The notes: a model not told the origin generated them from the sequence alone. Shown: positions 1 to 17,448, counted from the stretch's first letter. The stretch is DNA of 58,618 bases from Parcubacteria group bacterium (GCA_013204395.1 JABMNZ010000014.1:1-58618), one strand, 5' to 3'. Translations and numbers: made by a program.

Positions 1-1
1 T

Positions 2-475
2 AAACAAAACAGAGAACGCAAGAAAGCAGAAACAATTAGTAAGCGTCAAGAAAAACAAAAAACGACGCTCATTGAGTTTCTTCAAGAATCTCCAAACATT
101 GGAACCGCTTTGTCTAAAGTAGGAATCAATCGCTCAACCTATAGCAGGTGGAGATCAAGTGATCCTGTATTCACCACGGAAGCAGATCATGCAATTGAGC
201 AAGGTATTGCAAAAACAGCAGATGTTGTTGAGATTGCTCTTCTCAACAAGGCACGCGACGGAGACGTACGTGCACAAAAATATTATCTCGACAACAATCA
301 TGATCGCTATAAACCCAGACATTTGAATGATGCTTTCAACGAGCATGTGTTAACAGAAGAGCGAAAGAAGCAGATTGCTGACGCGATGAGAAATTGGAGC
401 ATGCCAACAGAGGGTGACGAGCGAGACGAGGATTATTATTTGGGCAGTGGACCTGATGCACCATTAACCGAATAA
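2..475 (+). CDS. Phage-type HTH protein (phBC6A51-like / terminase small subunit-like), 5' truncated by the window edge
   Basis: Frame is open from base 2 (KQNRERKK...ESPNIGTALSKVGINRSTYSRWRSSDPVF...VEIALLNKARDGDVRAQKYYL). HTH followed by a helical segment, as in small terminase-like proteins. Confidence 0.6.
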   Translation, partial: KQNRERKKAETISKRQEKQKTTLIEFLQESPNIGTALSKVGINRSTYSRWRSSDPVFTTEADHAIEQGIAKTADVVEIALLNKARDGDVRAQKYYLDNNHDRYKPRHLNDAFNEHVLTEERKKQIADAMRNWSMPTEGDERDEDYYLGSGPDAPLTE

Positions 476-1075
476 TGAATCGATCACGTTCTTCAAGTGA
501 TCAAACGTAACAGGTTTGATGTCGTGTTTTTGTAGAGTCAATAATGAAATCGCGCTCTTATCTTTGGATATCGTCTTGAGTATCTCTTTTGAAAGCACAT
601 AGAAACACCATTGATCTAAATTGAGAATGTCTAACGTCTCCGTTTCTGTATGGTTCAAAAGTGCGAGGACATAAATATCTGACTTGTATTCTTTCTGCTC
701 ATCTTTATTAAAGTCGCCAACAGCAGATGACCAGTAAAGTGACTTAGCCTTAAGACCTGCCCATCTAATGATTGAAAGTTTTGGTTGATCCCAGTCCTGA
801 AGATAGGAGCAAGACTTTACTTCAATCTTTTTGCTTTTGTATTCGACATCATAGTCTCCCCACGGATTACGGATCTCAATTTCGGTGAGTTCTTTAAGAG
901 CACACTCAACAAGGAATTCAGCCAACGAACCACGTAGAACATTGGAATTGAGATTCGAGAATCCATACTCCCAAAAATCTAAAACAGTGAATGGTCTAGT
1001 TGTGTGGTTAGAAAAATGCTCGTCGCCTGAGAGTTTGGTGACAGGTTTGCGAACGTAGGTTTTTTCGGTGTCCAT
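464..1075 (-). CDS. Putative PD-(D/E)XK restriction-endonuclease-like protein
   Basis: Motifs RGSLAEFLV, WGDYDV and IEVKS fit the E...D...E-x-K catalytic core. Confidence 0.6.
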   Translation of the reverse strand: MDTEKTYVRKPVTKLSGDEHFSNHTTRPFTVLDFWEYGFSNLNSNVLRGSLAEFLVECALKELTEIEIRNPWGDYDVEYKSKKIEVKSCSYLQDWDQPKLSIIRWAGLKAKSLYWSSAVGDFNKDEQKEYKSDIYVLALLNHTETETLDILNLDQWCFYVLSKEILKTISKDKSAISLLTLQKHDIKPVTFDHLKNVIDSLFG

Positions 1076-1138
1076 GAAATGAAGTGAGTGATTAAATAAA
1101 TAAGATCGCAGTAGCCAATCGTATCTTGATTTACGAAT

Positions 1139-2191
1139 TTAAGACAAAAGTTCCTCGATAACATGAAGAAACGGAGAGGTCTTCGGCAACCATTCCTCTG
1201 GGAAAACGCTTGGTTTGGATTCTTTATAATTCTCTAAAAATGAGAAGCCGATCGTTTCCAATTTTTCTTTGAATAGCTCGGCGAGCCGTTTCTCCATCCA
1301 CTCGAAATTGAATATAAGTCTCTTGTCCGTTGAAAGAGTGAACAGCGACCGTTCGCAGATCGTTCCAAAAATAGGGATGAACGTTCCATAGGCACCTGTT
1401 CCGAAACGAATTTCGCTGGCGTGCTGTTTTGAAAAAGCATAGATCTGTTCGAAGCCTCTGTACTCGTCTGAAGAGAGTCTTTGCTTTGCATCCTGAAGCA
1501 TCATTTCCTCCGTCCATTTTCTCCGAGTAATGTTTGATTTAGATACAGAGATATCTTTCTTTACTTCCGTGCCAAATATTTTTTGAATAATAATTTCGTA
1601 CGTATCGTGCTTGTAGTATTCAAATTCAACCGCATATACATCGAACTGACTATTTTGATTTACATACAAGATAAGATCTTTGAGCCTATCATCTAATTTG
1701 TCCATCAATACGACAAAATGAAATACTCCATTATTAAGATTGTCCTGAATTTTCTCGATAACCGCATTCATTTCTTCTGTCTCAAGTTCAAAAAATTCAC
1801 TGATCTTTTCCGTAGCACGGAGTTTAAATTCCTTTTGCGTATGTTGATCTAAGATTCTCAAAAATTCATTAAAATCATTTGCGTGTTTCCACAATGCTGC
1901 TCCGTAATCCAGTGATTGGGCAATTACCCGTCTTTTGTCCGCATTTGCATACAGCTTTGTCTCAACAATATAAATCTCTCCGTACTTATCAATACCGATC
2001 GCATCAATAGGACCACTATTGGTAGGAAATTCTCGTGCGAGAATTAATAGACTTATATCTTCTTTGATTTCATATAAAGGAATACTCTCTGGATTCTCGT
2101 AGATATACTTCTGTAAATAATCCTCCTTCTCAAAGGAAGATTTCTTTACTTTCACAGCTTTTTCGCCGTGAGATGAAATGATGATAGCCAT
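1139..2191 (-). CDS. NucS/DUF91-like PD-(D/E)XK endonuclease with an extra C-terminal domain
   Basis: EDYLQKYIYENP, AREFPTNSGPIDAIGID, IVETK, VIAQSLDY. Confidence 0.7.
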   Translation of the reverse strand: MAIIISSHGEKAVKVKKSSFEKEDYLQKYIYENPESIPLYEIKEDISLLILAREFPTNSGPIDAIGIDKYGEIYIVETKLYANADKRRVIAQSLDYGAALWKHANDFNEFLRILDQHTQKEFKLRATEKISEFFELETEEMNAVIEKIQDNLNNGVFHFVVLMDKLDDRLKDLILYVNQNSQFDVYAVEFEYYKHDTYEIIIQKIFGTEVKKDISVSKSNITRRKWTEEMMLQDAKQRLSSDEYRGFEQIYAFSKQHASEIRFGTGAYGTFIPIFGTICERSLFTLSTDKRLIFNFEWMEKRLAELFKEKLETIGFSFLENYKESKPSVFPEEWLPKTSPFLHVIEELLS

Positions 2192-2280
2192 AGTGTTCTA
2201 CATGAAAATAATTTACGAATCGTGAGTTTTTAACAGGTTTCGAGTGCAAGCCTTTCGTTGCTCATGAAAGAAAACTCTAA

Positions 2281-2430
2281 AAACAAAAAGGACACCCCTG
2301 AGGTGTCTAGACCCAAACAATAAAACCCTAAGGTCGTACTGCTTGTTTTATCAGGTGTGCCCGTTACGACGCACTACGACCTGATAAGCTAAAATAGCCT
2401 TTATAGGTTTTTTTGTTTGAATCTAGACAA
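2281..2430 (-). ncRNA. Candidate structured leader RNA/attenuator upstream of the NucS-like gene
   Basis: Long imperfect inverted repeat 2304..2429 overlaps a terminator hairpin (2291-2296/2302-2307) with a U-tract. A TATACT -10-like hexamer lies just upstream on the minus strand. Confidence 0.55.
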
Positions 2431-2473
2431 TGAAAGTATAACTTAGGATGACCTTAAAGTGAAGCATTGTTTT

Positions 2474-3553
2474 CTATGTTCGTTTTATGTTCGGTATATT
2501 TTCTATTTCAATGACTTTTCGCAACTGTTCGTCAGATGTGTAGCCAATTAACTGCCCTGTGATAGCACCGAGTGTAGATTCAAGTGATGATTTAACTAAT
2601 CGCCAGTTTGTGGTGCGAAGAGATCTGATGAGAGCTTTCTCGACAATTTTCTTTGATTCCTTGTCTGCACGATCTTGCATTGAATCAAGTATTGTAATCG
2701 TCACTTTTAAACCCCTCTCATTCGTTGGTTGAGACAAATCCACCTTGGTCATACCAAGCTTCTCTAAGGGCTTTGTTATGCGTTCTTGTAGACCCATAAC
2801 ACGTAGTCGCTTCAGTGATTCCATTCGTTCATTTGTCTTTGTATCTTCTTGTTGAGCCTTAGTCCGCTTCATCATGTCTTCAAAAGTTTTCATATCACGT
2901 TTCATCTGTCGATATGATTCAAGACCCTTTTCATCTAAACAATATTCTTTTCGAAGAATCTCATCTATTGGATCCTCTTTCTTTTCTTTGTGAGAAAAAT
3001 CATGCTTATCAATTTCTTTGGTACCACAAAGTTTACATGTCCAAGTGATAGTGGTCGTAATACCTTCTCGATTAACATCTGAATCAGTTTCACCATCACA
3101 TTTTTTACACAGTGTTGGTTTTGAAATATATTCCTCTCCATTATTAAAGAATGCTCGATTGGGTAGACAATTATTTGGGCAAGAATAAAACAGGAGCACT
3201 CGCTCCTGTTCATCCATAGCTGAATAGTATGTTTTGAAATCGAAGTTTAAAAATGAATCACAAGTAAAACAATTAATGTCAGTTCTTGGTTTAGCGGATT
3301 CTAAAAGATCCGCTCTTCGTTTATCTTTTTCCGCCCATTCACGTAAATATTTTTCTTTCCTTTCTGCATTGCTACCCTTGATAGCAATCATCGCAATATT
3401 TCGTACGATATGATACGAGCTCACAGCTTTTTCTCGCTCAGGATCATACTCAGATACCTTAGCTAATGTTTCTTCCAAAGCATGTTCAACTCGAACACAT
3501 TCCTTAATAGTTTGACGATCGTAAATATCGTTATAGTCAGTCTCTGAAGTCAT
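2474..3553 (-). CDS. Hypothetical zinc-finger protein (four Cys pairs)
   Basis: CFTC, CPNNC, CKKC and CKLC motifs; start overlaps the stop of the upstream HEPN gene by 4 bp. Confidence 0.75.
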   Translation of the reverse strand: MTSETDYNDIYDRQTIKECVRVEHALEETLAKVSEYDPEREKAVSSYHIVRNIAMIAIKGSNAERKEKYLREWAEKDKRRADLLESAKPRTDINCFTCDSFLNFDFKTYYSAMDEQERVLLFYSCPNNCLPNRAFFNNGEEYISKPTLCKKCDGETDSDVNREGITTTITWTCKLCGTKEIDKHDFSHKEKKEDPIDEILRKEYCLDEKGLESYRQMKRDMKTFEDMMKRTKAQQEDTKTNERMESLKRLRVMGLQERITKPLEKLGMTKVDLSQPTNERGLKVTITILDSMQDRADKESKKIVEKALIRSLRTTNWRLVKSSLESTLGAITGQLIGYTSDEQLRKVIEIENIPNIKRT

Positions 3554-4584
3554 AAAGCTTCGCGCCAGGATTGATACTCCTGATCTATGTATGATCGAAG
3601 CCGGTCAAGATTCTGAATATTATTTTGTGCAACCACCTCAATGATTTTCATAAAGTACTCATATGCCCACCATTCGAAAGAGGATATATTTTCATCCACG
3701 GTAATAATGTTCGCTTCGTGTGATATGTTGCAGCGTATTTTGTACCACCTTGTGAAATCACTATAAGCAGAGCAAGCATAAGGAAAATTTAATGCTTTTA
3801 AGCCCCCTGTGAATTCATCAGAATTGTTTGACGTAAGGATTGGACAGAGACATTTTATACCTGGATGCAAAAAAGCATGAGAAATCATCGTGCATTGCCG
3901 TGTGAGAGTAAACTTTTTAAAAGAACCATGCTTCTTGAGAAGTAGAACCTCAAATCCGGTCATGATCTTAGTAAATCTGTACTGCGGTTTTAGCTCAAGA
4001 GCGCCTTCATAGATGAGGCCAATGGCTTTCATAATACGATTTTCAATATCGTTTCTCTTTGCAGATGCTGCTAGCTTAGATAGAAATTGAAAATCGTCCC
4101 TCGCTTGAATTTTTCGTATCGAAGAATTGTTAAAGCTCCACTCTGCAAAATTACCTTCTCTTCGGAAGCCATATGATTGTTTTGAGCCTTCTATTGCGGC
4201 AATGAAATTTTGAAACGATGGCGCATCACTTGGGAGTCCAAAAATCTGATGATTAACGGATGATCTACCTGCTATCTGTTTCTGCATGAGGTACAAAATG
4301 GACATTGATTCTCGAATCGAATTCTCAATATTTGTACGATCTTTTGGAATTAGCTTGTCACCAGATCGCTCAATCTCAAGTTCTGCGAACGCGGATTTGT
4401 CTAAGTTATTTTGCACGTCGGTCACAGCGTCTAACCGAGAAAAAGTTTTGGCAACTAACTCGGCTGATCCCGCGGGATGTATGGTAACTCTACCAACTTT
4501 GATATCAGATTCAACGTTCAAATTAACAAGAGGAATGTAGAGCTTTGTGGTTTGTTTCGGTTTATCTTTTAAAAGTTCATTCAT
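3550..4584 (-). CDS. HEPN-domain protein (ApeA-like putative RNase)
   Basis: C-terminal helical domain with MTGFEVLL and an R-x4-H motif (IRCNISH); beta-rich N-terminal domain. Confidence 0.65.
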   Translation of the reverse strand: MNELLKDKPKQTTKLYIPLVNLNVESDIKVGRVTIHPAGSAELVAKTFSRLDAVTDVQNNLDKSAFAELEIERSGDKLIPKDRTNIENSIRESMSILYLMQKQIAGRSSVNHQIFGLPSDAPSFQNFIAAIEGSKQSYGFRREGNFAEWSFNNSSIRKIQARDDFQFLSKLAASAKRNDIENRIMKAIGLIYEGALELKPQYRFTKIMTGFEVLLLKKHGSFKKFTLTRQCTMISHAFLHPGIKCLCPILTSNNSDEFTGGLKALNFPYACSAYSDFTRWYKIRCNISHEANIITVDENISSFEWWAYEYFMKIIEVVAQNNIQNLDRLRSYIDQEYQSWREAL

Positions 4585-5741
4585 TTGAGATTTTTATAAT
4601 AATCTAAGTAGCGCTTCTTCACATCAGTCAACAAATCTGTGTAGGTCTTTATTTTGAACTGACTCGCACGATACTTCATGCGTTTTCTCAGTTCTGGATC
4701 AATTTTTTTTCCAACTAAATAAGCTTCAAATTTGTTTACCGACCCTCCTGTATGTGACTCAATGATTGCAAGGTATGTTTCTAATTGGTTCAAGTCTTCA
4801 ACTTTTAGAGTATGGCTCGGTCGTTTTATTTCAATGATGATCACTTTTTCTCCTATTGATCCACATACAAAGTCAGGGCGCTTTTTCTTATGTTTTCTAT
4901 CCTTTTCAAGTGTGTCTCCAACAATGGTCAGTAATGCCTGATTACTGTGCATTAGCCAGTATCGTTCATCCACAATCCACATGGCCTTCTCGAGAATACG
5001 GTGAATCGAGCCATCTCCACGGATCTCGTAGGTTTTATCATTCAAAATTGCATTCTCAAAAATATCTAAGGTATCGATACGGTGTTTGACTTCAAGTGTA
5101 ACTGCATTAACCTGCTTCAGGTTCCATTGACTTAAAATGTTCTCCAGATCTTCGATGGCCCGCTTTCCCTGCTTTGGTAACTTCTTTATTAGGCTTTTGA
5201 TAGCAGCAACGATCTCAGAATCGACTCCCTTTATAGTGGCTACAAGATCCGCTGTTGCAGATATCGCTTCGGGTAAATCTTCTTCCTTTATCAACTTAAA
5301 ATTCAATTCACTTAAAACCTTTTTTGCTAACTCAGGATGCTGCTTGGCCATTAATTTTGCAGCACTGTCGCTGTCTCCCATTTTTGCTGTACTAACAATG
5401 TCCGCTCTAGTTTTCCAACCCATGTGACCCCATAGACGATTACAAACAATATCTTGAATCATTTCCCACTCTTCGGGTTTGTTGATGTGCATCGTCGCAC
5501 TGGCGCCAGGCCACCATTTGTAGAGAGTTATACGTCTATCTGGTGCATTGTCACCATACAACTCTTTATTTGGTTCCGTGATTTGAACGCAGAACTGACG
5601 ATTGATCTTTTCAATTTTTTTAACCCATTCAGGTGCAAATTTATCTGAGCCACAACTACATACATCCGCATTTGGCTTATTTTCTATCAAACATTTTTGA
5701 CAGAGCTTATAGGGTTTGTTCTTTGTTTTTTTCTTTTGCAT
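4581..5741 (-). CDS. Zn-ribbon + helical linker + PD-(D/E)XK nuclease (Shedu/Mrr-like catalytic domain)
   Basis: N-terminal CQKC...CSCG; C-terminal IHRILEKAMWI, RPDFV, IIEIKRP, QLETY. Confidence 0.7.
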   Translation of the reverse strand: MQKKKTKNKPYKLCQKCLIENKPNADVCSCGSDKFAPEWVKKIEKINRQFCVQITEPNKELYGDNAPDRRITLYKWWPGASATMHINKPEEWEMIQDIVCNRLWGHMGWKTRADIVSTAKMGDSDSAAKLMAKQHPELAKKVLSELNFKLIKEEDLPEAISATADLVATIKGVDSEIVAAIKSLIKKLPKQGKRAIEDLENILSQWNLKQVNAVTLEVKHRIDTLDIFENAILNDKTYEIRGDGSIHRILEKAMWIVDERYWLMHSNQALLTIVGDTLEKDRKHKKKRPDFVCGSIGEKVIIIEIKRPSHTLKVEDLNQLETYLAIIESHTGGSVNKFEAYLVGKKIDPELRKRMKYRASQFKIKTYTDLLTDVKKRYLDYYKNLK

Positions 5742-5742
5742 A

Positions 5743-7200
5743 TCACAACTTTTTTAAAAACCGATAAATCTCCACCATTGCAAATGTATCGAGTTTGCAA
5801 TATTGGAGCATGTCTTTGCGAAGTTGCTCTCTTTTTTTAGAATCCAAATCTGGATCTATAAGAACCTGCCAACTTGCTGATGCTGTACCACCTTCTTGTA
5901 TATTCAAATCCTTATAAGATAATTCGGGCACGAGAACAGGAAGAACTTTTTTTATGGAAGCACTCCCACCAAAACGAGAGTCGACATAATATCCCTGCTT
6001 CACAATCTGCATCAGATCAAACATTCGGTTGTTGATGTCATTAAAAAAGTTTGCGTATTCAGGAACTTGTTTACCGATGAGCTTATTGCAAGCAATCTCA
6101 AACACAGCGTTCCACGCGATGAACGAACCTTTGTCACCAACATGTTCCCTCAAAGCTTTTGCAAGATAAGGCGCAGGGTTTTCATTGTGATCAGCCAGGA
6201 ACTCCACGTGTTCAAGCTTGCTGTTTGGTTCTCGTAAAATATGTAATGAATATTGAAATGGAATTTGGTTATAAGGTCGATATCCATCAAAAGGAGGAAT
6301 CGCGGGATGTACTGTCTCGTAGTCAAAAAAGTAAAGTGGATATTCAAGTTTTGAAAGCTCGTCTTCGATGTTTTCTTTTTCAATGTGAACCGTAGGATTC
6401 CCGTCTTTTAAGGGAACCTTAAGATCACTAAGAGACCCAAGCAGTTCAGGGGGTATTTGAGAAGGTTGGATCAGCCCAGTTTCAAGAAACACTTTTAGTT
6501 TTTCTTGTGATAACTGCGGTGCAATGGAGTAGATGTCATCATCTCTCAGCTCGGTAATGTAACAAGAAAGATATTCACATTTGTTTGGCTTGCGACATGA
6601 CTTAAGATGAATTGCACCAGGAGACATCGGCCACCTTATAACCTTGATTGCCTCTGGTATGAGCTGTCTAACCTTTGGAATGAGCACCAGCGCCTCGTCT
6701 GTTACATCCTCCACTGTAAACAGCCTTTGTGGATCAATTTCCCCTTGGCGTACATATTGATTATTGATATGCACAATAAAAGTCTTACTAATAGTAAGGC
6801 CTGAGTCTTCAAGACAAATCCGTTGAAATGCCACATCAATCTTATGCTCATCTTTAACAGACGTTGAACTCTTTACTTCATAAATTTCCCAAGCATCACC
6901 ATTTTTCACAATGATGTCAGAACGACAGGAAAGATCTTTTGTAAAAAACGTTGGTTGAAAAATTACAGTCTCACCCTCTTTAATCGCTTGCTTGGTTTTG
7001 CGAACAGCCGGAGCACCAAATCCATCTACTGAAACACCTTCCGGAAAAAGCTTCTGTGCAAATGAATCGACAATATTTCCATCGTCAAACAAGCGCTGTA
7101 GATCAGCACTGATAGGAGGTGCTAAATCTTTACGTTGTTTCATGATCCACAGTTCACATGTGCACCGCAAAAACTGCATGTAGTTGGATTTTGTGATCAT
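5743..7200 (-). CDS. DUF2779-domain protein (RecB/Cas4-like nuclease N-domain + DEDD/RNase H-like C-domain)
   Basis: ITKSNYMQFLRC, RSDII, YEVKSST, DVAFQ; then YPLYFFDYET, YNQIPFQYSLH, WNAVFE, SASIKKVLP, YCKLDTFAM. Confidence 0.85.
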   Translation of the reverse strand: MITKSNYMQFLRCTCELWIMKQRKDLAPPISADLQRLFDDGNIVDSFAQKLFPEGVSVDGFGAPAVRKTKQAIKEGETVIFQPTFFTKDLSCRSDIIVKNGDAWEIYEVKSSTSVKDEHKIDVAFQRICLEDSGLTISKTFIVHINNQYVRQGEIDPQRLFTVEDVTDEALVLIPKVRQLIPEAIKVIRWPMSPGAIHLKSCRKPNKCEYLSCYITELRDDDIYSIAPQLSQEKLKVFLETGLIQPSQIPPELLGSLSDLKVPLKDGNPTVHIEKENIEDELSKLEYPLYFFDYETVHPAIPPFDGYRPYNQIPFQYSLHILREPNSKLEHVEFLADHNENPAPYLAKALREHVGDKGSFIAWNAVFEIACNKLIGKQVPEYANFFNDINNRMFDLMQIVKQGYYVDSRFGGSASIKKVLPVLVPELSYKDLNIQEGGTASASWQVLIDPDLDSKKREQLRKDMLQYCKLDTFAMVEIYRFLKKL

Positions 7201-7221
7201 AATTAACGCTTTGTAATTCCT

Positions 7222-7557
7222 TTAGTTAGATTCATGCTTTTTGACATAGTCCTTAACTGGAGTTGTAACAGTGTTCAAATTTATGCCTTTGTCTAAACAA
7301 TAGCTTCCTTTAAACCAGTCTGTAATTCTTTTTGCTCCACGACTGGCATTGCAACTGAAACAACAAATAGCGATTGTTGAGATATTGTTCCAAGGTGGAA
7401 GATGGTTTAAGTGTTCAATTGTTGACCAATCACCGCGAAATTCTTCTGACCCTGCTTTCTTCATAGTCTTGTGACAATAAACACAAACAGAATCCCTTGC
7501 ACGTATACTGTCTAATTCTTTTTCGGGTAGTCCATATTTATTTTTCATACCCTTCAT
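7222..7557 (-). CDS. Small HNH endonuclease (Zn-binding)
   Basis: RDSVCVYC, TIEHL, AICCFSCNASRG. Confidence 0.75.
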   Translation of the reverse strand: MKGMKNKYGLPEKELDSIRARDSVCVYCHKTMKKAGSEEFRGDWSTIEHLNHLPPWNNISTIAICCFSCNASRGAKRITDWFKGSYCLDKGINLNTVTTPVKDYVKKHESN

Positions 7558-7772
7558 TTTTTGGCTCTTCTCCTTGCTTCAGAAGCAGTCTTCTTTTTAT
7601 GAGTAGATTTTTTGATGAGATGAAGATTGCTTTGTGTGTCTGTTCCACCATCTACAAGAGGTTTCTTATGATCTATTTCTTTGCCTTTTGGAACTTTCTT
7701 TAACCCCTTCTTCTCTAAAAAATTATTAACGGTCGAAGCTTTGCGTTTTATCTTTGATCCTGGTTTTGTCAT
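7554..7772 (-). CDS. Minimal basic HNH endonuclease
   Basis: EIDHKKPLVDGGTDTQSNLHLIKKSTHKKKT, a classic H-N-H beta-beta-alpha motif. Confidence 0.75.
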   Translation of the reverse strand: MTKPGSKIKRKASTVNNFLEKKGLKKVPKGKEIDHKKPLVDGGTDTQSNLHLIKKSTHKKKTASEARRRAKK

Positions 7773-7832
7773 ATGTAATTTTTATGATTAAAAATAGTAA
7801 GTGGGGCAAGAATGTATCACCCCACTATTTAA

Positions 7833-8117
7833 CTATCCGACTCGTTGATTGCAACGTGGTTGCAATGCAATGATCAACTCTTTCTCTCTATTAGACGGAT
7901 CTCCTGCTGTAACTTCCGCAACCCAATGAGTAGGATTGTGTCTGTTAAGCCCAGGAATGTCACCGTTCAGGTGATCCAGAAGACGTTGTCTAATGTCTCC
8001 TTTACCAACATAGATCCAAAGATTTTGCTGGAAAATGCCGTAGACTCCGATCTGTTCCTTGTTTACCGCTAGAATTGCTTCACGCGAATAAGGACGAGGT
8101 TCTTGCTTAATGAACAT
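7833..8117 (-). CDS. Small GIY-YIG nuclease-family protein
   Basis: GVYGIF, IYVGKG, IRQRLLDH, REKELI, PRCN. Start moved to ATG 8117 because the upstream part is a structured leader. Confidence 0.75.
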   Translation of the reverse strand: MFIKQEPRPYSREAILAVNKEQIGVYGIFQQNLWIYVGKGDIRQRLLDHLNGDIPGLNRHNPTHWVAEVTAGDPSNREKELIIALQPRCNQRVG

Positions 8118-8315
8118 ACTATGGTTTGCGTCTGAGGCGAGACGCGTTGTTATCCACCTCTGCATATATCCCCATGGATGCACCTTCACCAATTTGGCTA
8201 TTTACGCTACAATCGGAGTGCAGATTCCAACTGTAGTAGTTTTTCACCATTTCGATGAGGTGCTGAATTAAAGCGAGAGGCACTAGTTTACGCTAGTGCT
8301 TTTCACTTACAGCAC

Positions 8316-8344
8316 ATTATGTCATGTAACTATATTCAATGCAA
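8316..8344 (-). promoter_or_regulatory. Sigma70-type promoter for the nuclease cluster
   Basis: Minus strand TTGCAT-17 nt-CATAAT with an extended -10 TG. Confidence 0.55.
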
Positions 8345-8446
8345 GAAGAGATAGGATCTATCGCTCAAAGATAGGTCTAGATATATAGCAGATCTAACAC
8401 AATGTGATACTTGACAAGTCAGCTTAATGTAGTAGTATATAATCAT

Positions 8447-8845
8447 ATGGATATAAACAATCTAAACCTAGAGAAGTTTACAGGCTATGGCTCAAAGACG
8501 AGTCGGAAAATCAGTATAACCAAATCTTTTAGTTTCGGTTTGCCACCGGCTTTTTATCAAGAAAATGAACTAGATAAGTTCAATTTTGCACTTTTACTGT
8601 TCGATAAAGATAATAAAGTTATTGCAATAAAGTTTGCGGAGAATGATTCTGATGGAGGGTTTAAATTAGCCACATATGGTGAAGGTAAAAAACGTGGTGC
8701 TACATTTGTAGCAAGGTCATTCTTTAACAATTATAATATAGATCCAAAACTATATAGTGGAAGATACGAGTATGAGAAGATTAATAGTGATGAACATGGT
8801 CAGGTCTTCTTAATCAAGATAGAGGCACAGGATATAGAAACATAA
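8447..8845 (+). CDS. Hypothetical protein, possibly AbrB/swapped-hairpin-like DNA-binding regulator
   Basis: Divergent from the nuclease cluster. KISITKSFSFGLPPAFY...ALLLFDKDNKVIAIK resembles the AbrB beta-hairpin pattern. TTGACA at 8411 upstream of ATG 8447. The fold is inferred. Confidence 0.55.
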   Translation: MDINNLNLEKFTGYGSKTSRKISITKSFSFGLPPAFYQENELDKFNFALLLFDKDNKVIAIKFAENDSDGGFKLATYGEGKKRGATFVARSFFNNYNIDPKLYSGRYEYEKINSDEHGQVFLIKIEAQDIET

Positions 8846-8848
8846 ACT

Positions 8849-8874
8849 AAAATAGAGTCGAAAGACTCTATTTT
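8849..8874. terminator. Bidirectional intrinsic terminator
   Basis: Perfect hairpin aaaatagagtc-gaaa-gactctatttt between convergent genes. Confidence 0.8.
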
Positions 8875-8947
8875 TATTTACGTTATAGGTGTTTTATTTA
8901 ACTGTCACATGTCTATTCATTAACATAAGTAAAAATATTCTATTGAA

Positions 8948-11140
8948 TTATTCTGATTTTTTTAAATAAATATTCGTGTATGCCTCTTTGATAATACTTT
9001 TGTCTTTGGGGAAAGGAATTTGCAAATTATTTGTAAAAGCAGGGAAAATAAGATTCTTTATTCCAGATGTATTGTTCTCTAGGTTAAACATCTGCCCGTG
9101 ATCATATAATAGAGTCAGATAATTATATATATACAATGATAAATTCTTGTCCTTAAATCTGAGCACTCTACAAAAATTGGTGCATAGGACAGGTGTTTCT
9201 AAATGCTGAATAGTCTCCTCTGTAATGATACAAATACGGCCTGTAGATTGCTTCGGACTACCTCCGGATATTTCAATAACAACGTCATTGGGCTCTAATG
9301 ACTTTAGAGAAATATGATCTTTTTTCACATACCTAAAAGGAATTTTTTCATAGTTGCACAGTCTAATTTTAGGAATATCTGTCCCTCTAATGCATCTAAC
9401 CTTTTCTGTATAATTCTTGTTTGGGGTTTCTTTTCCCCACTCTCCACCTCTAGCTTCTTCTAATAAGTCAGAGATTGTAAAATACTCTATCCACTCTTTA
9501 TCTTGTGCAATATCTTTTGGTAACACCTCATCCAATATAAAGTTTCTGAATAAACTATCATTGAATTTCGAAGCTAATCCAAAGTTTTTTTGACTAAGAA
9601 TCTCTTTTTGTTTCTTTATATCTTTTCTATTTCTAGCAAGATTTTCTTTATTTATAGTAAAATATAAGCCCGCCTTAATCATGTAATCTATTTCCTTAAT
9701 TTGGTCCACGCCTACCATCTTTGAAAACTCAGGTATCTCATCTTTTCTTGTAAATGTTTCAAAGATTTTTTCCAATTCATCCTCTTTTATAATAATTCTA
9801 GTATTGTTGCTCTCCTTAATAGCGACTCCTAATTTAGACGCATCAAGAAACATTACATTATCATTTGGTTTACTGTTATCCAGAAACATAACGCTTACAC
9901 TAGTGTTTGTATTCGCAAAAAAATTTGATGGAAAGTGTATTACCCCAGCGAGCAACTTTTCTTCAATAAGAAATTTCCTTATTTTTTCATGTATCGTACC
10001 TGTGTCTGTGCAAAAGCCACTTGGCACAACAATTGCGGCCTTTCCTTTAGTAGACAAGGAGTGAATGATGTGCTGAATGAATAGCAAGTAGATTGCCATG
10101 GAATCCTTCTTCTTTTTTGGAATATTTGGAATTCCGGCGAAGAATCTTTCAGAGTTATCTTTTGTGTCTATATCTACACGCCAATCGCTGAAATCTAATT
10201 TAAAAGGAGGATTCGAAACAATGAAATCAAACTTCATCGGGTCGCTTCCGCTCTTAAAATATGGGTCTTTGATAGTATTCCCTTGAACCACGTTATGGAT
10301 TGAGTGCACCAAGTTATTCAAAATCAAATTCAATCGGAGTAGGTTGGAAGACTTGTCTGAGATATCTTGAGAATAGATTGTACATTTATCTTCTCCAATG
10401 GCATGCGCCACATTCATGAGTAATGTTCCAGAACCGGCCGATGGATCATATACAGAAACATTGCTTACAGGCTTATCTACCAAAATCGCAGCCATGATTT
10501 TTGCAATTGCATGAGGAGTGTAGTATTCGGCATACACACCGCCACCATCTTTATTGTAGTCTTTGATCAAGTACTCAAAAATCGTTGAAAAGAAGTCGAA
10601 TTTCTGATCGAAAATTTCTTCAAAGTTCACATCAACCAATTGGCCAATGAGCGCTTTTGCGAAATCATCTTTCTTCACCTCAGACTGATTGCGTAAATAT
10701 CCGTCAACTCCATTAAAGAGTTGGATTTTTTGACCCTCTTCTGTTTTTACAGAAAAAACATCATTATTGATCTTTGCAATATCTCTTAGTGTGTCGCTAA
10801 AGAGAGCAGAGAACTGTTCGCTATTCTGCTTATTCCAGAGAGTGGAAATGAAATGATCTGGACGTAGCCTTGCACTATCAGGGCTCATTTTCGAAAGTAA
10901 TAACTCATACTCTTCGTCTGAAAACTTTCTAATCGCCTCTTCCCAGTTTTCGGCACCATTGAGCTTTGGCTCAATTTGTTTTGCTTCGTAACCAAACTTA
11001 TCATTCATGAACTTGTACAGAAAAACTTGAGTAATGATATTGAATTCATCACCCGAATTTCCCAGACCAGCGTTATTACAAATTCCTTTCAGCTTATCGA
11101 TGAGTTGTTTTGTTTTTTGTGTGAAATTTTGTTCTACCAT
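8948..11140 (-). CDS. hsdM: Type I R-M N6-adenine methyltransferase HsdM fused to a single-TRD half HsdS
   Basis: AEYYTP, YDPSAGSGTLL and VSNPPF motifs; C-terminal HsdS-type TRD (GGEWGKE, IRGTD, VIEISGGSPKQSTGR). Confidence 0.9.
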   Translation of the reverse strand: MVEQNFTQKTKQLIDKLKGICNNAGLGNSGDEFNIITQVFLYKFMNDKFGYEAKQIEPKLNGAENWEEAIRKFSDEEYELLLSKMSPDSARLRPDHFISTLWNKQNSEQFSALFSDTLRDIAKINNDVFSVKTEEGQKIQLFNGVDGYLRNQSEVKKDDFAKALIGQLVDVNFEEIFDQKFDFFSTIFEYLIKDYNKDGGGVYAEYYTPHAIAKIMAAILVDKPVSNVSVYDPSAGSGTLLMNVAHAIGEDKCTIYSQDISDKSSNLLRLNLILNNLVHSIHNVVQGNTIKDPYFKSGSDPMKFDFIVSNPPFKLDFSDWRVDIDTKDNSERFFAGIPNIPKKKKDSMAIYLLFIQHIIHSLSTKGKAAIVVPSGFCTDTGTIHEKIRKFLIEEKLLAGVIHFPSNFFANTNTSVSVMFLDNSKPNDNVMFLDASKLGVAIKESNNTRIIIKEDELEKIFETFTRKDEIPEFSKMVGVDQIKEIDYMIKAGLYFTINKENLARNRKDIKKQKEILSQKNFGLASKFNDSLFRNFILDEVLPKDIAQDKEWIEYFTISDLLEEARGGEWGKETPNKNYTEKVRCIRGTDIPKIRLCNYEKIPFRYVKKDHISLKSLEPNDVVIEISGGSPKQSTGRICIITEETIQHLETPVLCTNFCRVLRFKDKNLSLYIYNYLTLLYDHGQMFNLENNTSGIKNLIFPAFTNNLQIPFPKDKSIIKEAYTNIYLKKSE

Positions 11141-14133
11141 ACACGCGTGTTAGTGAAATCATTGAGATACTCTTGAGTAGCCATGCTGTTTATTTCTTTC
11201 GCTGCTTTAGAATCCAGCTTCATTTCATGACTCTCGAAAGCCTTTATAACGATTGGGCTCATGAATTTAACAAAGTACCCCTCATTCTGAATCACGCGGG
11301 CATTATCAAGCACTTTTTGATCAGCATCGTGCTTTATGTCCACAAGGGCACCGTGTATTAACGACTCACGAACATTTACATTTTTTCGCTCCACAACTCT
11401 CTTGTGTAGCCTTGCAAATTTTTCGTCATTGTCGTATTTCGCTTTAAGCTGATTGTTTCTTCGGTTTAGCTCATTAATTTCTTGGTAGATCTTCTCAAGT
11501 GCTTCAATATTTTCATTCATTTCCTCCTGTGTGATTTCATCAAGATTCTTTTTGTTGAACAATCGTCTTAGCTCCTCATACAATTCAATAAATTCCGGAT
11601 CGTTTTTATCGAAGTTGCATGCCAACGACTCCCTTGTTTTCTTAAGCGTGCTCTTGAGTTTATCCGCTATAACCATTTCCTCTTGCGATACTTTTTTGAA
11701 GGTAAATATCACATCCTCAAGGGCGACATTGAGAAGATTGGTTGTCTCGGTCCTGTTTTCAAGAGAATCTTTCAGGTTAATCAAATTCAAATGATTCTCT
11801 GTCTCGGTATACAGTGACGCTAACTTCTTAAAATCAATTTTCTTGAGCAAATCGTAATGACCCATGAGGCGAATCATGTTGTATAGATTCTTTGCGCTCA
11901 TGAGTGCCTTTTTGATTTCTAGAACGGCATCCTTATCTTTTATCTCTGTGATTTGTTGTGAAAATATCTCTGCGTTTTGAAGATCGAAGTGGAACAGCTT
12001 TTCTTTAATTGTTTCAATTTCTATTTCAACTTCTTCCTTTGATAAGAAGATATTTGAGTAGTTCTGCAACTCATCACCTAGCTCTTCTTGCAGTTCTTCA
12101 AAATATGCTTTATTAGTCGCGTCGAATTCTTTTCTGATATCAGCAAAATCGACAACGTAGCCATAACGAAAATCTTTATATGGCCTATTAACACGAGTGA
12201 GCGTTTGCAAGAGATTATGCTTTCTGATGACTCTTCCCAAATATAGCTTCTTCAATCGTTTTGCGTCAAAACCAGTAAGAAGCATGTTATACACAAATAA
12301 TATATCTATCTTTCCCTCCTTGAATGCTTCAACCTCTTCTTTTCTTGTCTCCTTATCGCCGACATCGTGCAAAATCAAACTCGCCTTAAGTTCGTTTGAA
12401 TATTTCTTGTTAAAGATCTTAAACATTTGCTTTGCCTGATCCGAACTATCACAAACGACCATTGCGCCAATTGTGTCATCGCCAAACATTACACGACTGC
12501 CTTTGAAATCATTCACGATGTAGTCAATCATTGGATCAACAAACTTCGCATGGGCGTATATCTCTTTTTTCGGGATATCTCCCTTCAAGACTTTTATCTC
12601 CTTCACGGCTTCCTGAAGTTGCATCTTGTAACCTGTTTCTATGCCTTCTCGAATTAACTTAAGTGTGTACCCATCAGCGATCGATGCGTTGTAATAGTAC
12701 TTATGAATATAGTCACCAAAGAGAGCTTTTGAATTCTTATCGTCACCAATAAGGGGAGTTCCCGTTAGTCCAACAATAATAGCGTCTCTATCCGAGGTCA
12801 TGAGGTTTGCAAGAAAACTGCCATTTGGATCATAGCTTCTATGAACCTCATCTAGGAAATATACTCTTTGTGTATTTGTATCGTATGACTTACTAGTAAC
12901 AACCGCTGTGTCATCTTTGAACTTTTGTATGTTAACAACCGTAATTTCTTGTTTTCCCGACAGGTTGTGGATATTTGCGCTACTCTTAAAATCCTTTACA
13001 AGCTCTCTTCTAGAATTAACCGTGTGCACAACGAGTCCACGACCTGTAAATTCTCTTTTTGCCTGAATGAGCAGATCTAATCTGTCTACAATGAAGTAAA
13101 ACTTTGGGACAATATTTTTTTTATGAAAATAATCCGTTAAGTACCTCACGTTATAAAAAGACAATGCAGTTTTTCCACTTCCTTGAGTGTGCCAAATTAT
13201 GCCTTTCTTTTCTCCTTTTTCTATTGTTTGCTCAATGGCTTTCGTTGCAAAAAATTGAGGATACCGCATGATGTGTTTCTGTAATCCATCTGCTTCCTTC
13301 ACATATGCGATGCTGTATTTCAACCACATCGATAATCGATCCTTGCTAAAAAGCGAAGTCAAGATCCTGTTTGTTGGTGTTTGAGGATTTTTGTTGGTAG
13401 AAAATTCAGGGCTGTGTTTTATTACATTCAGGTTGTTGTCCTTTAAAACAAAATTTTCAACTTCTTCATCTGCTGGTTTCAGAAGTGTTTCCAAAACCAA
13501 GACCTCAACATCAGGATCTTCTTTGAATGCATTGAAGGCAGCCTTTCTGGTTGAAGTGCTTGAATAATATGCACCCTCAATCTGCTCGATCGATTCTTCG
13601 TCATATTCCATGTTATTGGAAAAGACTAAAATCTGAGTTAGGTTAATAAACTTTCTGAATTTTTTATTCTGAAATCGGACATTGATTCTATTTCTTTCAG
13701 CAAGAATCCCTTCTTTGTTGTTTGGTTTTTTGACTTCAATAAATGCAAGTGGCATTCCGTTTATGAGTAATGTGATATCGGGGCGGAATTCGTCGTCTCC
13801 ATTCTTGTAGGTCAACTCAGTGACTACATGAAAGTTATTGTTTTCGAAATTATCAAAATCAATAAGCTTCACGTCGTTTGACAACAACATTGAATAAAAT
13901 TCTTTTCCAAGATCTTCGTTATCAAGAATGAGACCTATTCTTCCATATAGTTTTTTTACCTCATCGTCTTCGATACCTTCATTTATCTTTTTAATAGAAT
14001 CAGAAAAAATATCGGTAAAGATATTCGTTTCGGGATCCCACTTTGATTCTTTTAATGATAGGTATTTATAGCCTAGTCCACATAGATGCAGAATCGCAGG
14101 TATTTTTACTCTTGTATCTTCATTGTGTGCCAT
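11134..14133 (-). CDS. hsdR: Type I restriction endonuclease subunit R
   Basis: RPDITLLINGMPLAFIEVK nuclease motif; WHTQGSGKT Walker A; DEVHRS; GLTGTP; MLLTGFDA; QTLTRVNR. Confidence 0.95.
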   Translation of the reverse strand: MAHNEDTRVKIPAILHLCGLGYKYLSLKESKWDPETNIFTDIFSDSIKKINEGIEDDEVKKLYGRIGLILDNEDLGKEFYSMLLSNDVKLIDFDNFENNNFHVVTELTYKNGDDEFRPDITLLINGMPLAFIEVKKPNNKEGILAERNRINVRFQNKKFRKFINLTQILVFSNNMEYDEESIEQIEGAYYSSTSTRKAAFNAFKEDPDVEVLVLETLLKPADEEVENFVLKDNNLNVIKHSPEFSTNKNPQTPTNRILTSLFSKDRLSMWLKYSIAYVKEADGLQKHIMRYPQFFATKAIEQTIEKGEKKGIIWHTQGSGKTALSFYNVRYLTDYFHKKNIVPKFYFIVDRLDLLIQAKREFTGRGLVVHTVNSRRELVKDFKSSANIHNLSGKQEITVVNIQKFKDDTAVVTSKSYDTNTQRVYFLDEVHRSYDPNGSFLANLMTSDRDAIIVGLTGTPLIGDDKNSKALFGDYIHKYYYNASIADGYTLKLIREGIETGYKMQLQEAVKEIKVLKGDIPKKEIYAHAKFVDPMIDYIVNDFKGSRVMFGDDTIGAMVVCDSSDQAKQMFKIFNKKYSNELKASLILHDVGDKETRKEEVEAFKEGKIDILFVYNMLLTGFDAKRLKKLYLGRVIRKHNLLQTLTRVNRPYKDFRYGYVVDFADIRKEFDATNKAYFEELQEELGDELQNYSNIFLSKEEVEIEIETIKEKLFHFDLQNAEIFSQQITEIKDKDAVLEIKKALMSAKNLYNMIRLMGHYDLLKKIDFKKLASLYTETENHLNLINLKDSLENRTETTNLLNVALEDVIFTFKKVSQEEMVIADKLKSTLKKTRESLACNFDKNDPEFIELYEELRRLFNKKNLDEITQEEMNENIEALEKIYQEINELNRRNNQLKAKYDNDEKFARLHKRVVERKNVNVRESLIHGALVDIKHDADQKVLDNARVIQNEGYFVKFMSPIVIKAFESHEMKLDSKAAKEINSMATQEYLNDFTNTRVW

Positions 14134-14170
14134 ACTAGTTTTGCACAAGAATTGTACTTATGTTCGTTCA

Positions 14171-14739
14171 ATGGTACTTCATTTATTGCCTAAAATCAAC
14201 AAAAAAAAATCACTTACTCTGTCAAAAAGAGCAAGCGAGCGAAGCGTATTCGGGTTGCTGTATATTGCGACGGATCTGTTGTCGTTACGTCTCCTCAGAA
14301 TGTGCTTGAGAAAACGATAATAAGATTTTTACATCTGAAGTCTGATTGGGTATTCAAGAAGCTTGAGTTTTTCTCAAAAATCGAAATACATTCGGATATC
14401 GCAGCATCTTCAAAAGAACATTTTTTACAATATAAAGATGAAGCTTTGGGGATGGTAAAGGCTCGAATTGATCACTTTTCGAAAATACACGGTTTTGATT
14501 CCCAAGAGATACGAGTAAAAATGTTAAAAACTAAATGGGGCAGCTGTTCTATAAAAAGAAATCTAAATTTTAACTACAAGGTATTATTTCTTAGTGACAA
14601 TCTACGTGATTACATTATCGTGCACGAGCTCTGTCATCTGAAAGAAATGAATCATTCAAGAAAATTCTGGCAACATGTTGAAAAGGTATTTCCGGATTAC
14701 CGGTGCATGCGAGAAGAATTGAAGAAGACTGGCTTATAG
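14171..14739 (+). pseudogene. YgjP/DUF45-like M48 metallopeptidase with a frameshift at an A9 tract (14201-14209)
   Basis: KWGSCS and YIIVHELCHLKEMNHS motifs. The family-like N-terminus ITYSVKKSKRAKRIRVAV...VVVTSP is in frame from 14209 but preceded by an in-frame TAA at 14191. ATG 14171 and TTG 14186 are one frame off. May be slippage-expressed rather than dead. Confidence 0.65.
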
Positions 14740-14751
14740 ATAAAATTAACA

Positions 14752-14784
14752 AAGATAGCTCCTCATAAAAGAGGGGTTATTTTT
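14752..14784 (+). terminator. Intrinsic terminator after the M48 gene
   Basis: aagatagctcctc-ataaaa-gaggggttatttt hairpin with T-tract. Confidence 0.6.
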
Positions 14785-14850
14785 GTTATCAAGTTACCAA
14801 CAGCAACCAGCCTGGACGCACTGCAAGGGTTGCGTCATCAATGGTGTTGT

Positions 14851-16191
14851 ATGGAAACAACAAGACAAGAAGACGAACAGAAAGCGATTAAATATGTGCT
14901 TTATGCTCGTAAGTCATCAGAGTCGGAGGAACGGCAGATTCTGTCGATTGATTCTCAGATTAAAGAGATGTTAGAGCTCGCTGAGCGAGAAAAACTAGAA
15001 GTAGTGGCCATTCGGCGCGAATCACATTCAGCGAAGGATACGGGGCAACGTGAGGTCTATAATGAGCTCATTAAAGACGTTCGTGCGGGTAAATTCACAG
15101 GTATCATCACTTGGGCAGCAGATCGTTTAAGTCGAAATGCTGGCGACTTGGGAGTGGTCGTCGACTTAATGGATCAGGGGTACTTGAAAGAAATAAGAAC
15201 TCATGGACAGACGTTCACAAATTCACCAAACGAAAAATTTCTTCTCATGATTCTTGGATCAACCGCCAAGCTTGAGAATGATCATAGAGGAGTAAATGTA
15301 AAACGAGGATTAAGAACTAGAGTGGAGATGGGGCTTTGGCCAGGGATGGCACCGATTGGTTACCTGGATCAAAAAGCAATGGATAAGAAATGCCAAAAAA
15401 TTCTAGATGTGGAACGTGCGCCCATAATTAAACAGATGTTTGAAAAGGTGGCGTATGAAAAATATAGCGGACGAAAAGTCTATCACTGGTTACTGCATGA
15501 ATTGAACTTCAAAACGAGAGGCAACAAAACACTATCGCTTAGTGGTGTGCATCGAGTTCTCAACAATACTTTTTACTACGGAAAGTTCGAGTTCCCAAAA
15601 GGGACTGGGAAGTGGTACGACGGAAAACACAAACCAATAATAACTCAAGATCTTTTTGAAAAAGCATCTGCTCAATTACAGAGAGACCAAATTGTGTTGG
15701 TGAATAAAGAGTTCGCTTTCACCAGGCTGATGACCTGCGGACTTTGTGAGTCAGGTGTATGTGCACAAGAAAAGTTCAAGCAACTAAAAGACGGAACGCA
15801 TGCTAAGTATGTTTATTACGGATGCACACGAGGCAAGGACAGACATTGTAAGAATAAGTACATCCGTGAGGAAGAGCTCATTACACAACTAATAAAGATC
15901 GTCGATAAGATGGATATTAACATGCTTGGAGTAAAGTGCAGGCTTGAGGACGAGTTGAAGCGGTTCAGTAAGTTTCAGAGGATTGTTCTGGGGTCGGAAA
16001 GTGAATTGTCGCCAGACAGGCAGGAGGAAGTGAATATTCGAACCTATGCGAAGTATCTTCTCAAAGAAGGAAGTATTACAGAGAAACGGTACTTGCTGGG
16101 GAATATGAAGAGTAAGCTGGTGTATGAGAATCGGGTAGTAAAAATGATGGAACAGCCTATTGATCCTCAGAATCAGTTCGAAGTTGCATAG
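14851..16191 (+). CDS. Large serine recombinase (resolvase + recombinase + Zn-ribbon domains)
   Basis: YARKSSE (catalytic Ser), DRLSRN, APIGY, GKHKPII, CGLC...YYGC...C. Confidence 0.93.
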   Translation: METTRQEDEQKAIKYVLYARKSSESEERQILSIDSQIKEMLELAEREKLEVVAIRRESHSAKDTGQREVYNELIKDVRAGKFTGIITWAADRLSRNAGDLGVVVDLMDQGYLKEIRTHGQTFTNSPNEKFLLMILGSTAKLENDHRGVNVKRGLRTRVEMGLWPGMAPIGYLDQKAMDKKCQKILDVERAPIIKQMFEKVAYEKYSGRKVYHWLLHELNFKTRGNKTLSLSGVHRVLNNTFYYGKFEFPKGTGKWYDGKHKPIITQDLFEKASAQLQRDQIVLVNKEFAFTRLMTCGLCESGVCAQEKFKQLKDGTHAKYVYYGCTRGKDRHCKNKYIREEELITQLIKIVDKMDINMLGVKCRLEDELKRFSKFQRIVLGSESELSPDRQEEVNIRTYAKYLLKEGSITEKRYLLGNMKSKLVYENRVVKMMEQPIDPQNQFEVA

Positions 16192-16927
16192 CGGCTTTAA
16201 ATCTCTCGCTCTCCATCATTTGTTTCTTTAAGCGATTGTTCTGTTCACGAAGCGACTTCATTTGTTTCAAAAATTCGGGAGAGAACTTAATAAGGCTTAC
16301 ACTCTGGTTCACTCCATAGAATAAGTCCATCAGACCCATTGTAATATCTCCAATCATCCAAAGGTCGTTTTTTATATGATACTCATCTTCGGTATCAAAG
16401 AAGGGAGTACCGAAGACATCTTCGTCCAAGTTCGGTTCAAAGTTTAGTGTGCCGCTAACGATGTTGGCATGAAGAGTAGAGCCGTTGAGAGTTTTTTTCA
16501 TGCCTTTAATTGAGCGTGAGGCGTCTGGATGATGTTCTTCAAGCCACCGATATCGCTTGTTGGTCAGTCGCTGAGGTGTCTCCATTATTCCATTGTCATC
16601 CACTTCGCCAAAGTCTGAGACGTCTGGATTGGCGATTGCGTAGGCCGCACTGGCGCCAGATTCTAAAATCTGCCTCGCATCCATATGTGCCTGAATTCTA
16701 TGAAGACGTGCCGTTGACAGAATGGCAAGAAGCGCATGTTTACGAACCTGCGAAAGAAACAAAGTGAAAATGAAGCGAGTTGCATCTACCGAAAGCAAGA
16801 AGTCCTGTAGTAGTGCATGTGCTTCCATTGCAAACGAAAAAAACTCACCGTATTTCTCGGGAGATTGTTGGATGAGCGACTGTTCACTGTCCAGAATATC
16901 CTGAATGGTATCTTGTTTGAGGGGCAT
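16157..16927 (-). CDS. All-helical hypothetical protein, DUF5677/HEPN-like
   Basis: ARQILES...YAIANP and NGSTLHAN resemble the R-x-x-l-E and S-x-x-x-H pattern of HEPN-like families. The start at 16927 is a judgement call; the ORF is open to 17065. Confidence 0.5.
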   Translation of the reverse strand: MPLKQDTIQDILDSEQSLIQQSPEKYGEFFSFAMEAHALLQDFLLSVDATRFIFTLFLSQVRKHALLAILSTARLHRIQAHMDARQILESGASAAYAIANPDVSDFGEVDDNGIMETPQRLTNKRYRWLEEHHPDASRSIKGMKKTLNGSTLHANIVSGTLNFEPNLDEDVFGTPFFDTEDEYHIKNDLWMIGDITMGLMDLFYGVNQSVSLIKFSPEFLKQMKSLREQNNRLKKQMMESERFKAAMQLRTDSEDQ

Positions 16928-17303: not shown

Positions 17304-17356
17304 CGACTCATTCCCAATTTTGCTACCCACTCGGGTTGCGCGATAAGAAATAGTCG

Positions 17357-17433: not shown

Positions 17434-17448
17434 ATGGATAGCGCGAAA

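Follow-up and report, generated by a model that had tools for sequence, protein, structure and literature searches.

Seven adjacent nuclease-like genes of a Parcubacteria group bacterium are probably mosaic cargo of a low-GC integrative island

The window analysed here, a stretch of 58,618 nucleotides from a Parcubacteria group bacterium (GCA_013204395.1, JABMNZ010000014.1:1-58618), carries close to its start seven minus-strand open reading frames (ORFs), A to G (2474-8192), which a first-pass annotation had read as a candidate undescribed anti-phage system of seven genes (Table 1). We propose that A-G are probably a mosaic of independently acquired nuclease genes, carried as cargo by an integrative island of low guanine-plus-cytosine (GC) content, and not one seven-component system, because the relatives of A-G are found apart from one another in other genomes. 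Hotspots of defence cargo on mobile islands are a known kind of arrangement; the present one includes two unannotated families, those of E and F, for which neither Pfam nor PADLOC v2 has an entry.

The distribution of the homologues carries this reading. In a matrix of 45 related loci, which leaves out the contigs of the nearest homologues of E (71% identity), G (66%) and F (58%), two or more of the seven genes were found in six loci, never more than three stood together (D, F and G in locus L005), and the gene order of the window was absent from all of the others. Within L005 the identities are unequal (58% for D, 51% for F and 38% for G), and a 6-kb stretch that includes a reverse transcriptase and methyltransferases separates D from F. 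The three small genes are scattered in the same way: in one sample of 200 genomes of the class, relatives of A occurred in G390 and G495, those of B in G374, G379 and G491, and those of C in G431 and G484, that is, in seven different genomes, and the C homologue of G431 stands alone. F was found in one of 40 relatives, again alone, and in three metagenome loci; its close family counts only five other proteins in a collection of 5.8 billion, and G adjoins it in one of four other F loci. E has 422 homologues in several phyla (42-71% identity) and only four distant matches in 300 genomes of the phylum; a tblastn search gave no match in phages and six distant partial matches in plasmids, and its close loci L035 and L036, both IMG/VR contigs, hold none of the other six genes. 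Of 41 genomes, 14 gave a score above the cut-off for the family domain of D (PF11074), and the 13 other D loci have C upstream in one case (G036) and E or F adjacent in none. G has 16 other relatives, of which the three with an organism label belong to the Candidate Phyla Radiation (CPR; Uhrbacteria or Patescibacteria), and it occurs without F in L008, L009, L037 and 10 loci of a 400-genome class sample, F being adjacent in one of the 14 other G loci. The homologues thus occur singly in unrelated contexts, which speaks against the new multi-component system that had been proposed. The other option offered at that time, a cassette array of stand-alone effectors under one regulator, is kept as far as the stand-alone array is concerned, since the units are distributed independently, and is given up for the regulator, as discussed below. 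The search for a named system in PADLOC-DB v2.0.0 returned weak single-domain matches only (Cas4 for D, REase_II at 0.004 for B and ZorD at 0.001 for G); no model matched A, C or F, and the relatives of E, F and G gave nothing relevant. With no system-level match, the gene order is, as stated earlier, that of no named system in this database.

The genes lie in DNA of foreign composition. The GC content is 38.3% over 1-17.3 kb, against 46.4% in the rest of the window and 47.1% in the genome (1.1 Mb, CPR/Patescibacteria-like). A large serine recombinase gene and a tRNA-Asp gene stand at the end of this low-GC part, and beyond it come the core genes pyk, htrA, nrdR, ftsZ and ftsA. The recombinase is 50-54% identical, near full length, to those of L035, contig C15 of the same genome, L072, L074 and L076, where the matched recombinases close modules made of ParB-methyltransferase, methyltransferase, TerS-like and TerL-like genes; it is also 75% identical over a partial match of 207 residues at the end of L070. 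At its other end the window opens within a TerS-like gene, which is 26-37% identical to the helix-turn-helix genes that follow the ParB-methyltransferase in eight other loci. Elsewhere the backbone of these islands comprises a ParB-methyltransferase, a methyltransferase, TerS-like and TerL-like (Terminase_6C/6N) genes and a serine recombinase; it is present in contig C15, L035, L005, L008, L009, L025, L037 and most of the G loci, and the cargo found near it includes GmrSD, reverse transcriptases, type I and type ISP-like restriction-modification (R-M) genes, Fic and zeta-toxin genes. Contig C15 carries, at about 33145-42225 (locus L038, 9146-18225), a second and complete backbone, with a recombinase 50% identical to that of the window, followed by a reverse transcriptase gene and a DUF5655 gene. 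In L035 (IMG/VR), two tandem TerL-like genes with 55% mutual identity lie between the TerS-like gene and the recombinase (3035-6318).

This setting recalls the defence islands and cargo hotspots of phage satellites and integrative elements, such as phage-inducible chromosomal islands (PICIs) and P4-like elements, with which the island shares a low-GC insert beside a tRNA gene, a serine recombinase, a TerS-like gene, and a conserved backbone that encloses exchangeable defence genes (type I R-M, GmrSD, reverse transcriptases, nucleases). It differs from them by a cargo stretch of about 14 kb, which is unusually long, and by lacking TerL-like and ParB-methyltransferase genes, which may be missing from the window because the contig breaks off within the TerS-like gene. 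The island is here either degenerate or running on past the contig start, the DNA to the left of the window not being in the assembly. The tRNA-Asp region has no second copy of 13 nt or longer elsewhere in the window that would mark the far boundary of the island. We know of no helper phage for this island.

The coordinates and spacing of A-G, with their overlaps and gaps, were reproduced exactly as described before: the seven reading frames are all intact and the intergenic gaps from A to G are 60, -4, 21, 1, -4 and -4 bp. According to this tight packing, B-G are probably read as one transcript. The 4-bp overlaps are, however, not diagnostic of one system, because the unrelated dgkA and ybeY genes and the gene next to them (25967-27917) are joined likewise. 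A differs from B-G by its GC content (45.6% against 35-40%), and the 60-nt gap between A and B folds at z -3.6 (2 of 200 shuffles as stable) and includes a terminator-like hairpin followed by a T-run. A second terminator-like site (2307-2291, minus strand) lies between G and a 350-aa gene; the latter, oriented like the cluster and separated from it by this site, would be an eighth gene of nuclease-like type. It had no place in the first-pass annotation, nor had the A/B hairpin or the mobile-island setting. As to the single promoter that had been placed at 8316-8344, the sequence read from 8344 to 8316 on the minus strand (TTGCAT-17-CATAAT) matches the consensus at 8 of 12 positions by manual count, falls under the threshold of our scan and is not listed by it; the scan itself gave 20 promoter-like sites where 27.5 were expected from shuffles. 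The structured leader fared better. Located at 8193-8315 (minus strand), between A and the divergent 144-aa gene, it forms two hairpins with a minimum free energy of -41.4 kcal/mol (z -5.5), and none of 200 shuffles was as stable. It matches no Rfam family, the only Rfam match across 1-18000 being tRNA-Asp. A conserved riboswitch was considered for this leader and dropped, as the A homologue of G390 has no conserved counterpart of it upstream.

Several observations weigh against the mosaic. Three pairings recur: F and G are adjacent once more (L005, with a 23-bp gap), C and D once more (G036), and D and G lie within 10 kb of each other in five other loci. A shared E-F-G block is possible in near kin, that is, in the relatives with 71% (E), 66% (G) and 58% (F) identity. 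No terminator-like site appears in the scan within the B-G junctions, three of which are 4-bp overlaps; this makes co-expression likely, and co-expression could mean co-function. On the side of the island, the window holds no TerL-like or ParB-methyltransferase gene (queries of the genome matched contig C15 only), and the island is assigned to its family by its recombinase, its TerS-like gene, the presence of G and its GC content. Finally, the defence role of A-F is a putative one, read from context and folds.

Among the individual genes, E and F stand out by their conserved catalytic motifs. In E, four cysteines (C14, C17, C28 and C30) together with D290, E304 and K306 are invariant in 25 homologues; the D...ExK motif supports its assignment as a predicted PD-(D/E)XK nuclease carrying a zinc ribbon, as first annotated. 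The matches to Pfam models lie under the cut-offs (PDDEXK_3 at 0.0023 and HSDR_N_2 at 0.00079), phrog_6203 matches at 2e-27, and the profile of E retrieved from the PDB only the zinc ribbons of eL40. Its C-terminal 200-270 residues align with positions 355-628 (of 644) of phrog_6203 and with positions 426-644 (of 659) of NF050001, the model of the BbrUII/HgiDII-family restriction enzymes (3.6e-6), although at a score of 25.8, far under the NCBIfam cut-off of 550. Unlike both families, E lacks their N-terminal 350-420 residues and has the L40e-like ribbon in their place; no cognate methyltransferase adjoins it.

F has no match in Pfam, NCBIfam, PHROG or PADLOC. In its structural model (pLDDT 80, pTM 0.82), the N-terminal domain is rich in beta structure and the C-terminal domain is helical, and a Foldseek search of the PDB found nothing at an E-value of 0.001 or below. 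In the wide VIA-align search, seven of the 17 best matches, over residues 176-323, are titled HEPN, among them the first of all, 8xdj (Z 8.3, root-mean-square deviation 2.9, 104 residues aligned); other HEPN matches were 4nqf (Z 7.6), 7ae2 (Z 7.3), AbiV (9bj5, Z 5.8), 2hsb, the HEPN domain of sacsin and Csm6. Since helical bundles may reach by chance any fold-match Z that stays under 8-13, the Z values of F are not decisive alone. The Rx4H motif adds to them: R284 and H289 are invariant in seven close and 32 distant (16-34% identity) sequences, with the consensus RNxxxH, and the model places R284 at the end of helix 272-285 and H289 just ahead of helix 290-321. Fold and motif together support a HEPN-like C-terminal domain, in agreement with the earlier prediction. 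A profile search of 1.84 billion representatives retrieved 529 relatives at an E-value of 0.001 or below, 75 at 1e-10 and seven at 1e-30. When 40 of these relatives were compared with Pfam, none passed a cut-off; four had a single sub-threshold match, one of which was to HEPN_RiboL-PSP (0.0099), and the scanned relatives gave no match in PADLOC. F thus shares the C-terminal HEPN alignment and the invariant Rx4H with HEPN-MNT toxins, AbiV and the HEPN domains of Csm6, but it is missed by all the HEPN models of Pfam and PADLOC, has no MNT partner beside it, and carries a 150-residue beta-rich N-terminal domain to which no fold could be matched.

D is, like B, solidly annotated. It matches PF11074 (DUF2779) at 4e-39 (134.2 bits for a cut-off of 23.3) and Cas_Cas4 (PF01930) at 5.5e-6 (27.0 bits for a cut-off of 22.7), both over the Pfam cut-offs, as well as the Cas4 models of PADLOC (best 6.7e-8), and the RecB-like plus DEDD-like composition proposed at first is thus well supported. 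D shares the two-part architecture, a Cas4-like PD-(D/E)XK part and a DEDD-type exonuclease, of the solo Cas4/DUF2779 family, for example MMSYN1_0389 of JCVI-syn3.0, which is treated in PMC13621843 and PMC3985635; the passages on DUF2779 in these two papers contain no test of the function of the family. They also make no mention of a feature seen here, namely that D stands directly after a restriction-type nuclease, as is the case in six of the 13 other D loci, on the same strand. The GmrSD-DUF2779 pair, found in four independent loci, may be a recurring two-gene unit.

The mosaic could therefore contain true two-gene modules, one made of an upstream endonuclease (C in the window, GmrSD or a type ISP-like enzyme elsewhere) and D, the other of F and G, where G would serve as a sensor or antitoxin. 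Such modules are compatible with the mosaic and would refine it; we regard them as possible, though rather unlikely. For the first module, the recurrence of restriction-type nucleases ahead of D is to be set against the loci where something else lies upstream of D: Fic (L022), a zeta-toxin gene (L024), VKOR together with unknown genes (L027), or unknown genes alone (L023, L029 and L071). For the second, the adjacency kept in L005 and the 4-bp overlap of F and G in the window are countered by F loci without G (G040 and L007; in L006 the downstream side of F is cut) and by the 13 of 14 other loci where G is found without F. Indeed, G follows the ParB-methyltransferase module and not F: a ParB-methyltransferase lies within 10 kb of G in 12 of the 14 other G loci, one of these matches being weak, and in these islands the two genes are divergent, with 0.6-4 kb of variable DNA between them. 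The complex prediction for F and G scored 0.00, which weighs neither for nor against their binding.

The protein G itself has eight cysteines conserved in the alignment and no catalytic signature. In its model (pLDDT 84, pTM 0.50), a helical hairpin is followed by a sheet domain with the zinc ribbons, by a coiled coil and by a domain of ferredoxin-like type; Foldseek found nothing in the PDB at an E-value of 0.001 or below, and the wide VIA-align and ESM Atlas searches gave only generic helical or ferredoxin-like (PilO/PilN-like) matches. The zinc-finger character that had been assigned to G is thus retained, and no nuclease fold was matched. Rather than an effector, G appears to be a gene that recurs at the flank of islands of one CPR family.

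The nuclease assignments proposed for A, B and C hold to different degrees. B passes the Pfam HNH cut-off (PF01844, 3.6e-6, 27.5 bits for a cut-off of 21.4) and matches phrog_333 at 1e-8. C has no Pfam match and only PHROG matches, to HNH and endonuclease VII families (1.5e-4 to 4e-3); its CxxC...H...N...CxxC pattern was seen by eye. The possibility that B and C are halves of one broken HNH gene was examined and dropped, as each has its own complete motif. A is weakly similar to GIY-YIG (PF01541, 0.04, 14.6 bits for a cut-off of 22.6), and phmmer against the PDB sequences gave no match at an E-value of 10 or below; the pattern GVY...YVG...R...E, found by eye, is conserved in the G390 homologue (61% identity). 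The alignment with the latter begins only at residue 24-27, and the true start of A is therefore probably the ATG at 8117, which would give a protein of about 94 aa. The divergent 144-aa ORF, earlier taken for the regulator of the cluster, has no Pfam match even at an E-value of 10. A promoter-like site with 10 of 12 matches (8411-8438, plus strand) precedes its proposed start. In G390, a 135-aa homologue (26% identity) lies directly upstream of the A homologue, on the same strand, and is itself preceded by a 921-aa type IIG-like R-M gene. The idea of one regulator thus does not fit the observations, because the 144-aa protein is without a regulator signature and travels with A alone in G390, and because the hairpin parts A from B-G; the protein is probably a partner of A.

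One may also consider that these genes do not act in defence, and that they serve the mobile element, as small HNH proteins aiding the terminase or as selfish homing endonucleases, or are decaying remnants. HNH proteins assist the terminases of some phages, the island has a TerS-like gene, A, B and C are very small, and the D homologue of G036 is broken. However, no B or C homologue was present in the 11 other loci with a TerL-like gene, the seven ORFs A-G are intact, the members of the E and F families keep their catalytic residues, and the genes that adjoin these families in other places encode R-M, GmrSD, reverse transcriptase, Fic and zeta-toxin proteins, so that we consider this improbable. 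Least probable is a single integrated multi-nuclease defence system made of B-G or A-G, for which plead the co-orientation, the 4-bp overlaps and gaps of 1 and 21 bp, the lack of a named match in PADLOC v2 and the defence-island location, and against which stand the 45 loci, none with more than three genes or with the order, the unequal size and spread of the families (six members for F, 17 for G and 422 for E, with D in a third of the relatives), the unequal identities to the best shared locus and the disjoint genomes in which the relatives of A, B and C are found.

Under the mosaic that we favour, six units would lie side by side: A with the divergent 144-aa gene, B, C with D, E, F, and finally G, the flank gene devoid of a catalytic fold. 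As their folds and motifs suggest, each enzyme would act alone against invading nucleic acid. E would cut DNA in a restriction-like manner. D would degrade DNA ends, perhaps those produced by the upstream endonuclease, and A, B and C would be small nicking or cutting enzymes. F may be an RNase of the abortive-infection type, its N-terminal domain sensing the infection. The neighbouring type I R-M genes, along with the PDC-S11 candidate, would round out the defence island. We further speculate, as a tentative proposal with less than even chances, that the interval between G and the packaging/recombinase genes of these CPR islands is a dedicated hotspot for defence cargo, that at least E, spread across phyla at 42-71% identity, and F, whose HEPN-like superfamily counts 529 or more clusters at 50% identity and is covered by neither Pfam nor PADLOC models, represent undescribed single-gene defence families, and that D boosts defence by degrading the DNA cut by an upstream restriction nuclease.

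The flanks of the cluster complete this description. The type I R-M system announced by the first-pass annotation is present, the HsdR, HsdM and HsdS functions being all matched by Pfam and PADLOC; the specificity part is formed by residues 555-711 of HsdM, a separate hsdS gene is absent, and the hsdM region (8948-11140) has the lowest GC content of the island (30-34%). Between the recombinase and the tRNA-Asp gene, one contig of DNA run X1 joins both ends of 16131-17222 and skips the 302-aa ORF located there; it shows several differing letters nearby and probably stems from a related strain or element. The contigs of three DNA runs show the stretch in the probable source run, and another run of that study has short pieces identical to it; these contigs are silent on transcription and modularity. 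A listing of sequencing runs showed no RNA run with the stretch. Further into the window (29517-40595, minus strand), a giant ORF of 3692 aa, probably for a surface protein of the CPR cell, has neighbours with TSP3 repeats and with Big_5 and T4SS-pilin domains.

Table 1. Positions of the genes and signals discussed in the window, and upstream neighbours of D homologues in other loci.
Feature	Position	Strand	Description
TerS-like HTH_Tnp_1_2 gene	2-475	+	PF13022, 1.7e-9; truncated at the contig start
350-aa gene downstream of G	1139-2191	-	PADLOC candidate PDC-S11, 5.7e-17; NucS, 1.3e-4 (weak)
G	2474-3553	-	helical hairpin, double zinc ribbon, coiled coil and ferredoxin-like C-terminal domain; no nuclease signature
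F	3550-4584	-	beta-rich N-terminal domain (~1-150) and predicted C-terminal HEPN-like domain (~176-323) with Rx4H
E	4581-5741	-	L40e-like zinc ribbon and predicted C-terminal PD-(D/E)XK nuclease
D	5743-7200	-	DUF2779: Cas4/RecB-like PD-(D/E)XK N-terminal part and DEDD-type exonuclease domain
C	7222-7557	-	111-aa HNH/endonuclease-VII-like zinc protein
B	7554-7772	-	72-aa HNH protein
Terminator-like hairpin and T-run	7800-7826	-	A/B gap; 10 pairs in the scan, 5 of them G-C
A	7833-8192	-	small GIY-YIG-like protein
144-aa ORF divergent from A	8411-8845	+	true start probably near 8447
Type I R-M, hsdM with fused specificity part	8948-11140	-	N6_Mtase 3.4e-65, MTase_I 5.6e-217, Specificity_I 3.9e-26
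Type I R-M, hsdR	11134-14148	-	HSDR_N/SWI2_SNF2/ResIII; REase_I 8e-43
Large serine recombinase	14830-16191	+	Resolvase, Recombinase and Zn_ribbon_recom domains
tRNA-Asp	17357-17433	-	just beyond the recombinase
D locus L028 (G036)			C homologue directly upstream
D locus L005	3-3202 (in L005)		GmrSD (type IV restriction) directly upstream of the DUF2779 gene
D locus L025	9608-13228 (in L025)		GmrSD (type IV restriction) directly upstream of the DUF2779 gene
D locus L037	1129-4770 (in L037)		GmrSD (type IV restriction) directly upstream of the DUF2779 gene
D locus L077	1689-5824 (in L077)		GmrSD upstream, 145-aa PD-(D/E)XK-like ORF between
D locus L026			1058-aa type ISP-like enzyme upstream
D locus L022			Fic upstream
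D locus L024			zeta-toxin gene upstream, 70-aa ORF between
D locus L027			VKOR and unknown genes upstream
D loci L023, L029, L071			unknown genes upstream

Altogether, these results indicate that a striking run of seven nuclease-like genes can arise by accretion in a hotspot of a mobile island; therefore, in ultra-small genomes, tight packing and overlapping stop and start codons are poor evidence for a multi-component system. The leads that emerge are the E and F families, with their intact catalytic motifs, and the DUF2779 exonucleases that recur after restriction-type nucleases. G, for its part, would mark the edge of a widespread family of CPR islands, the defence repertoire of which has been little explored.

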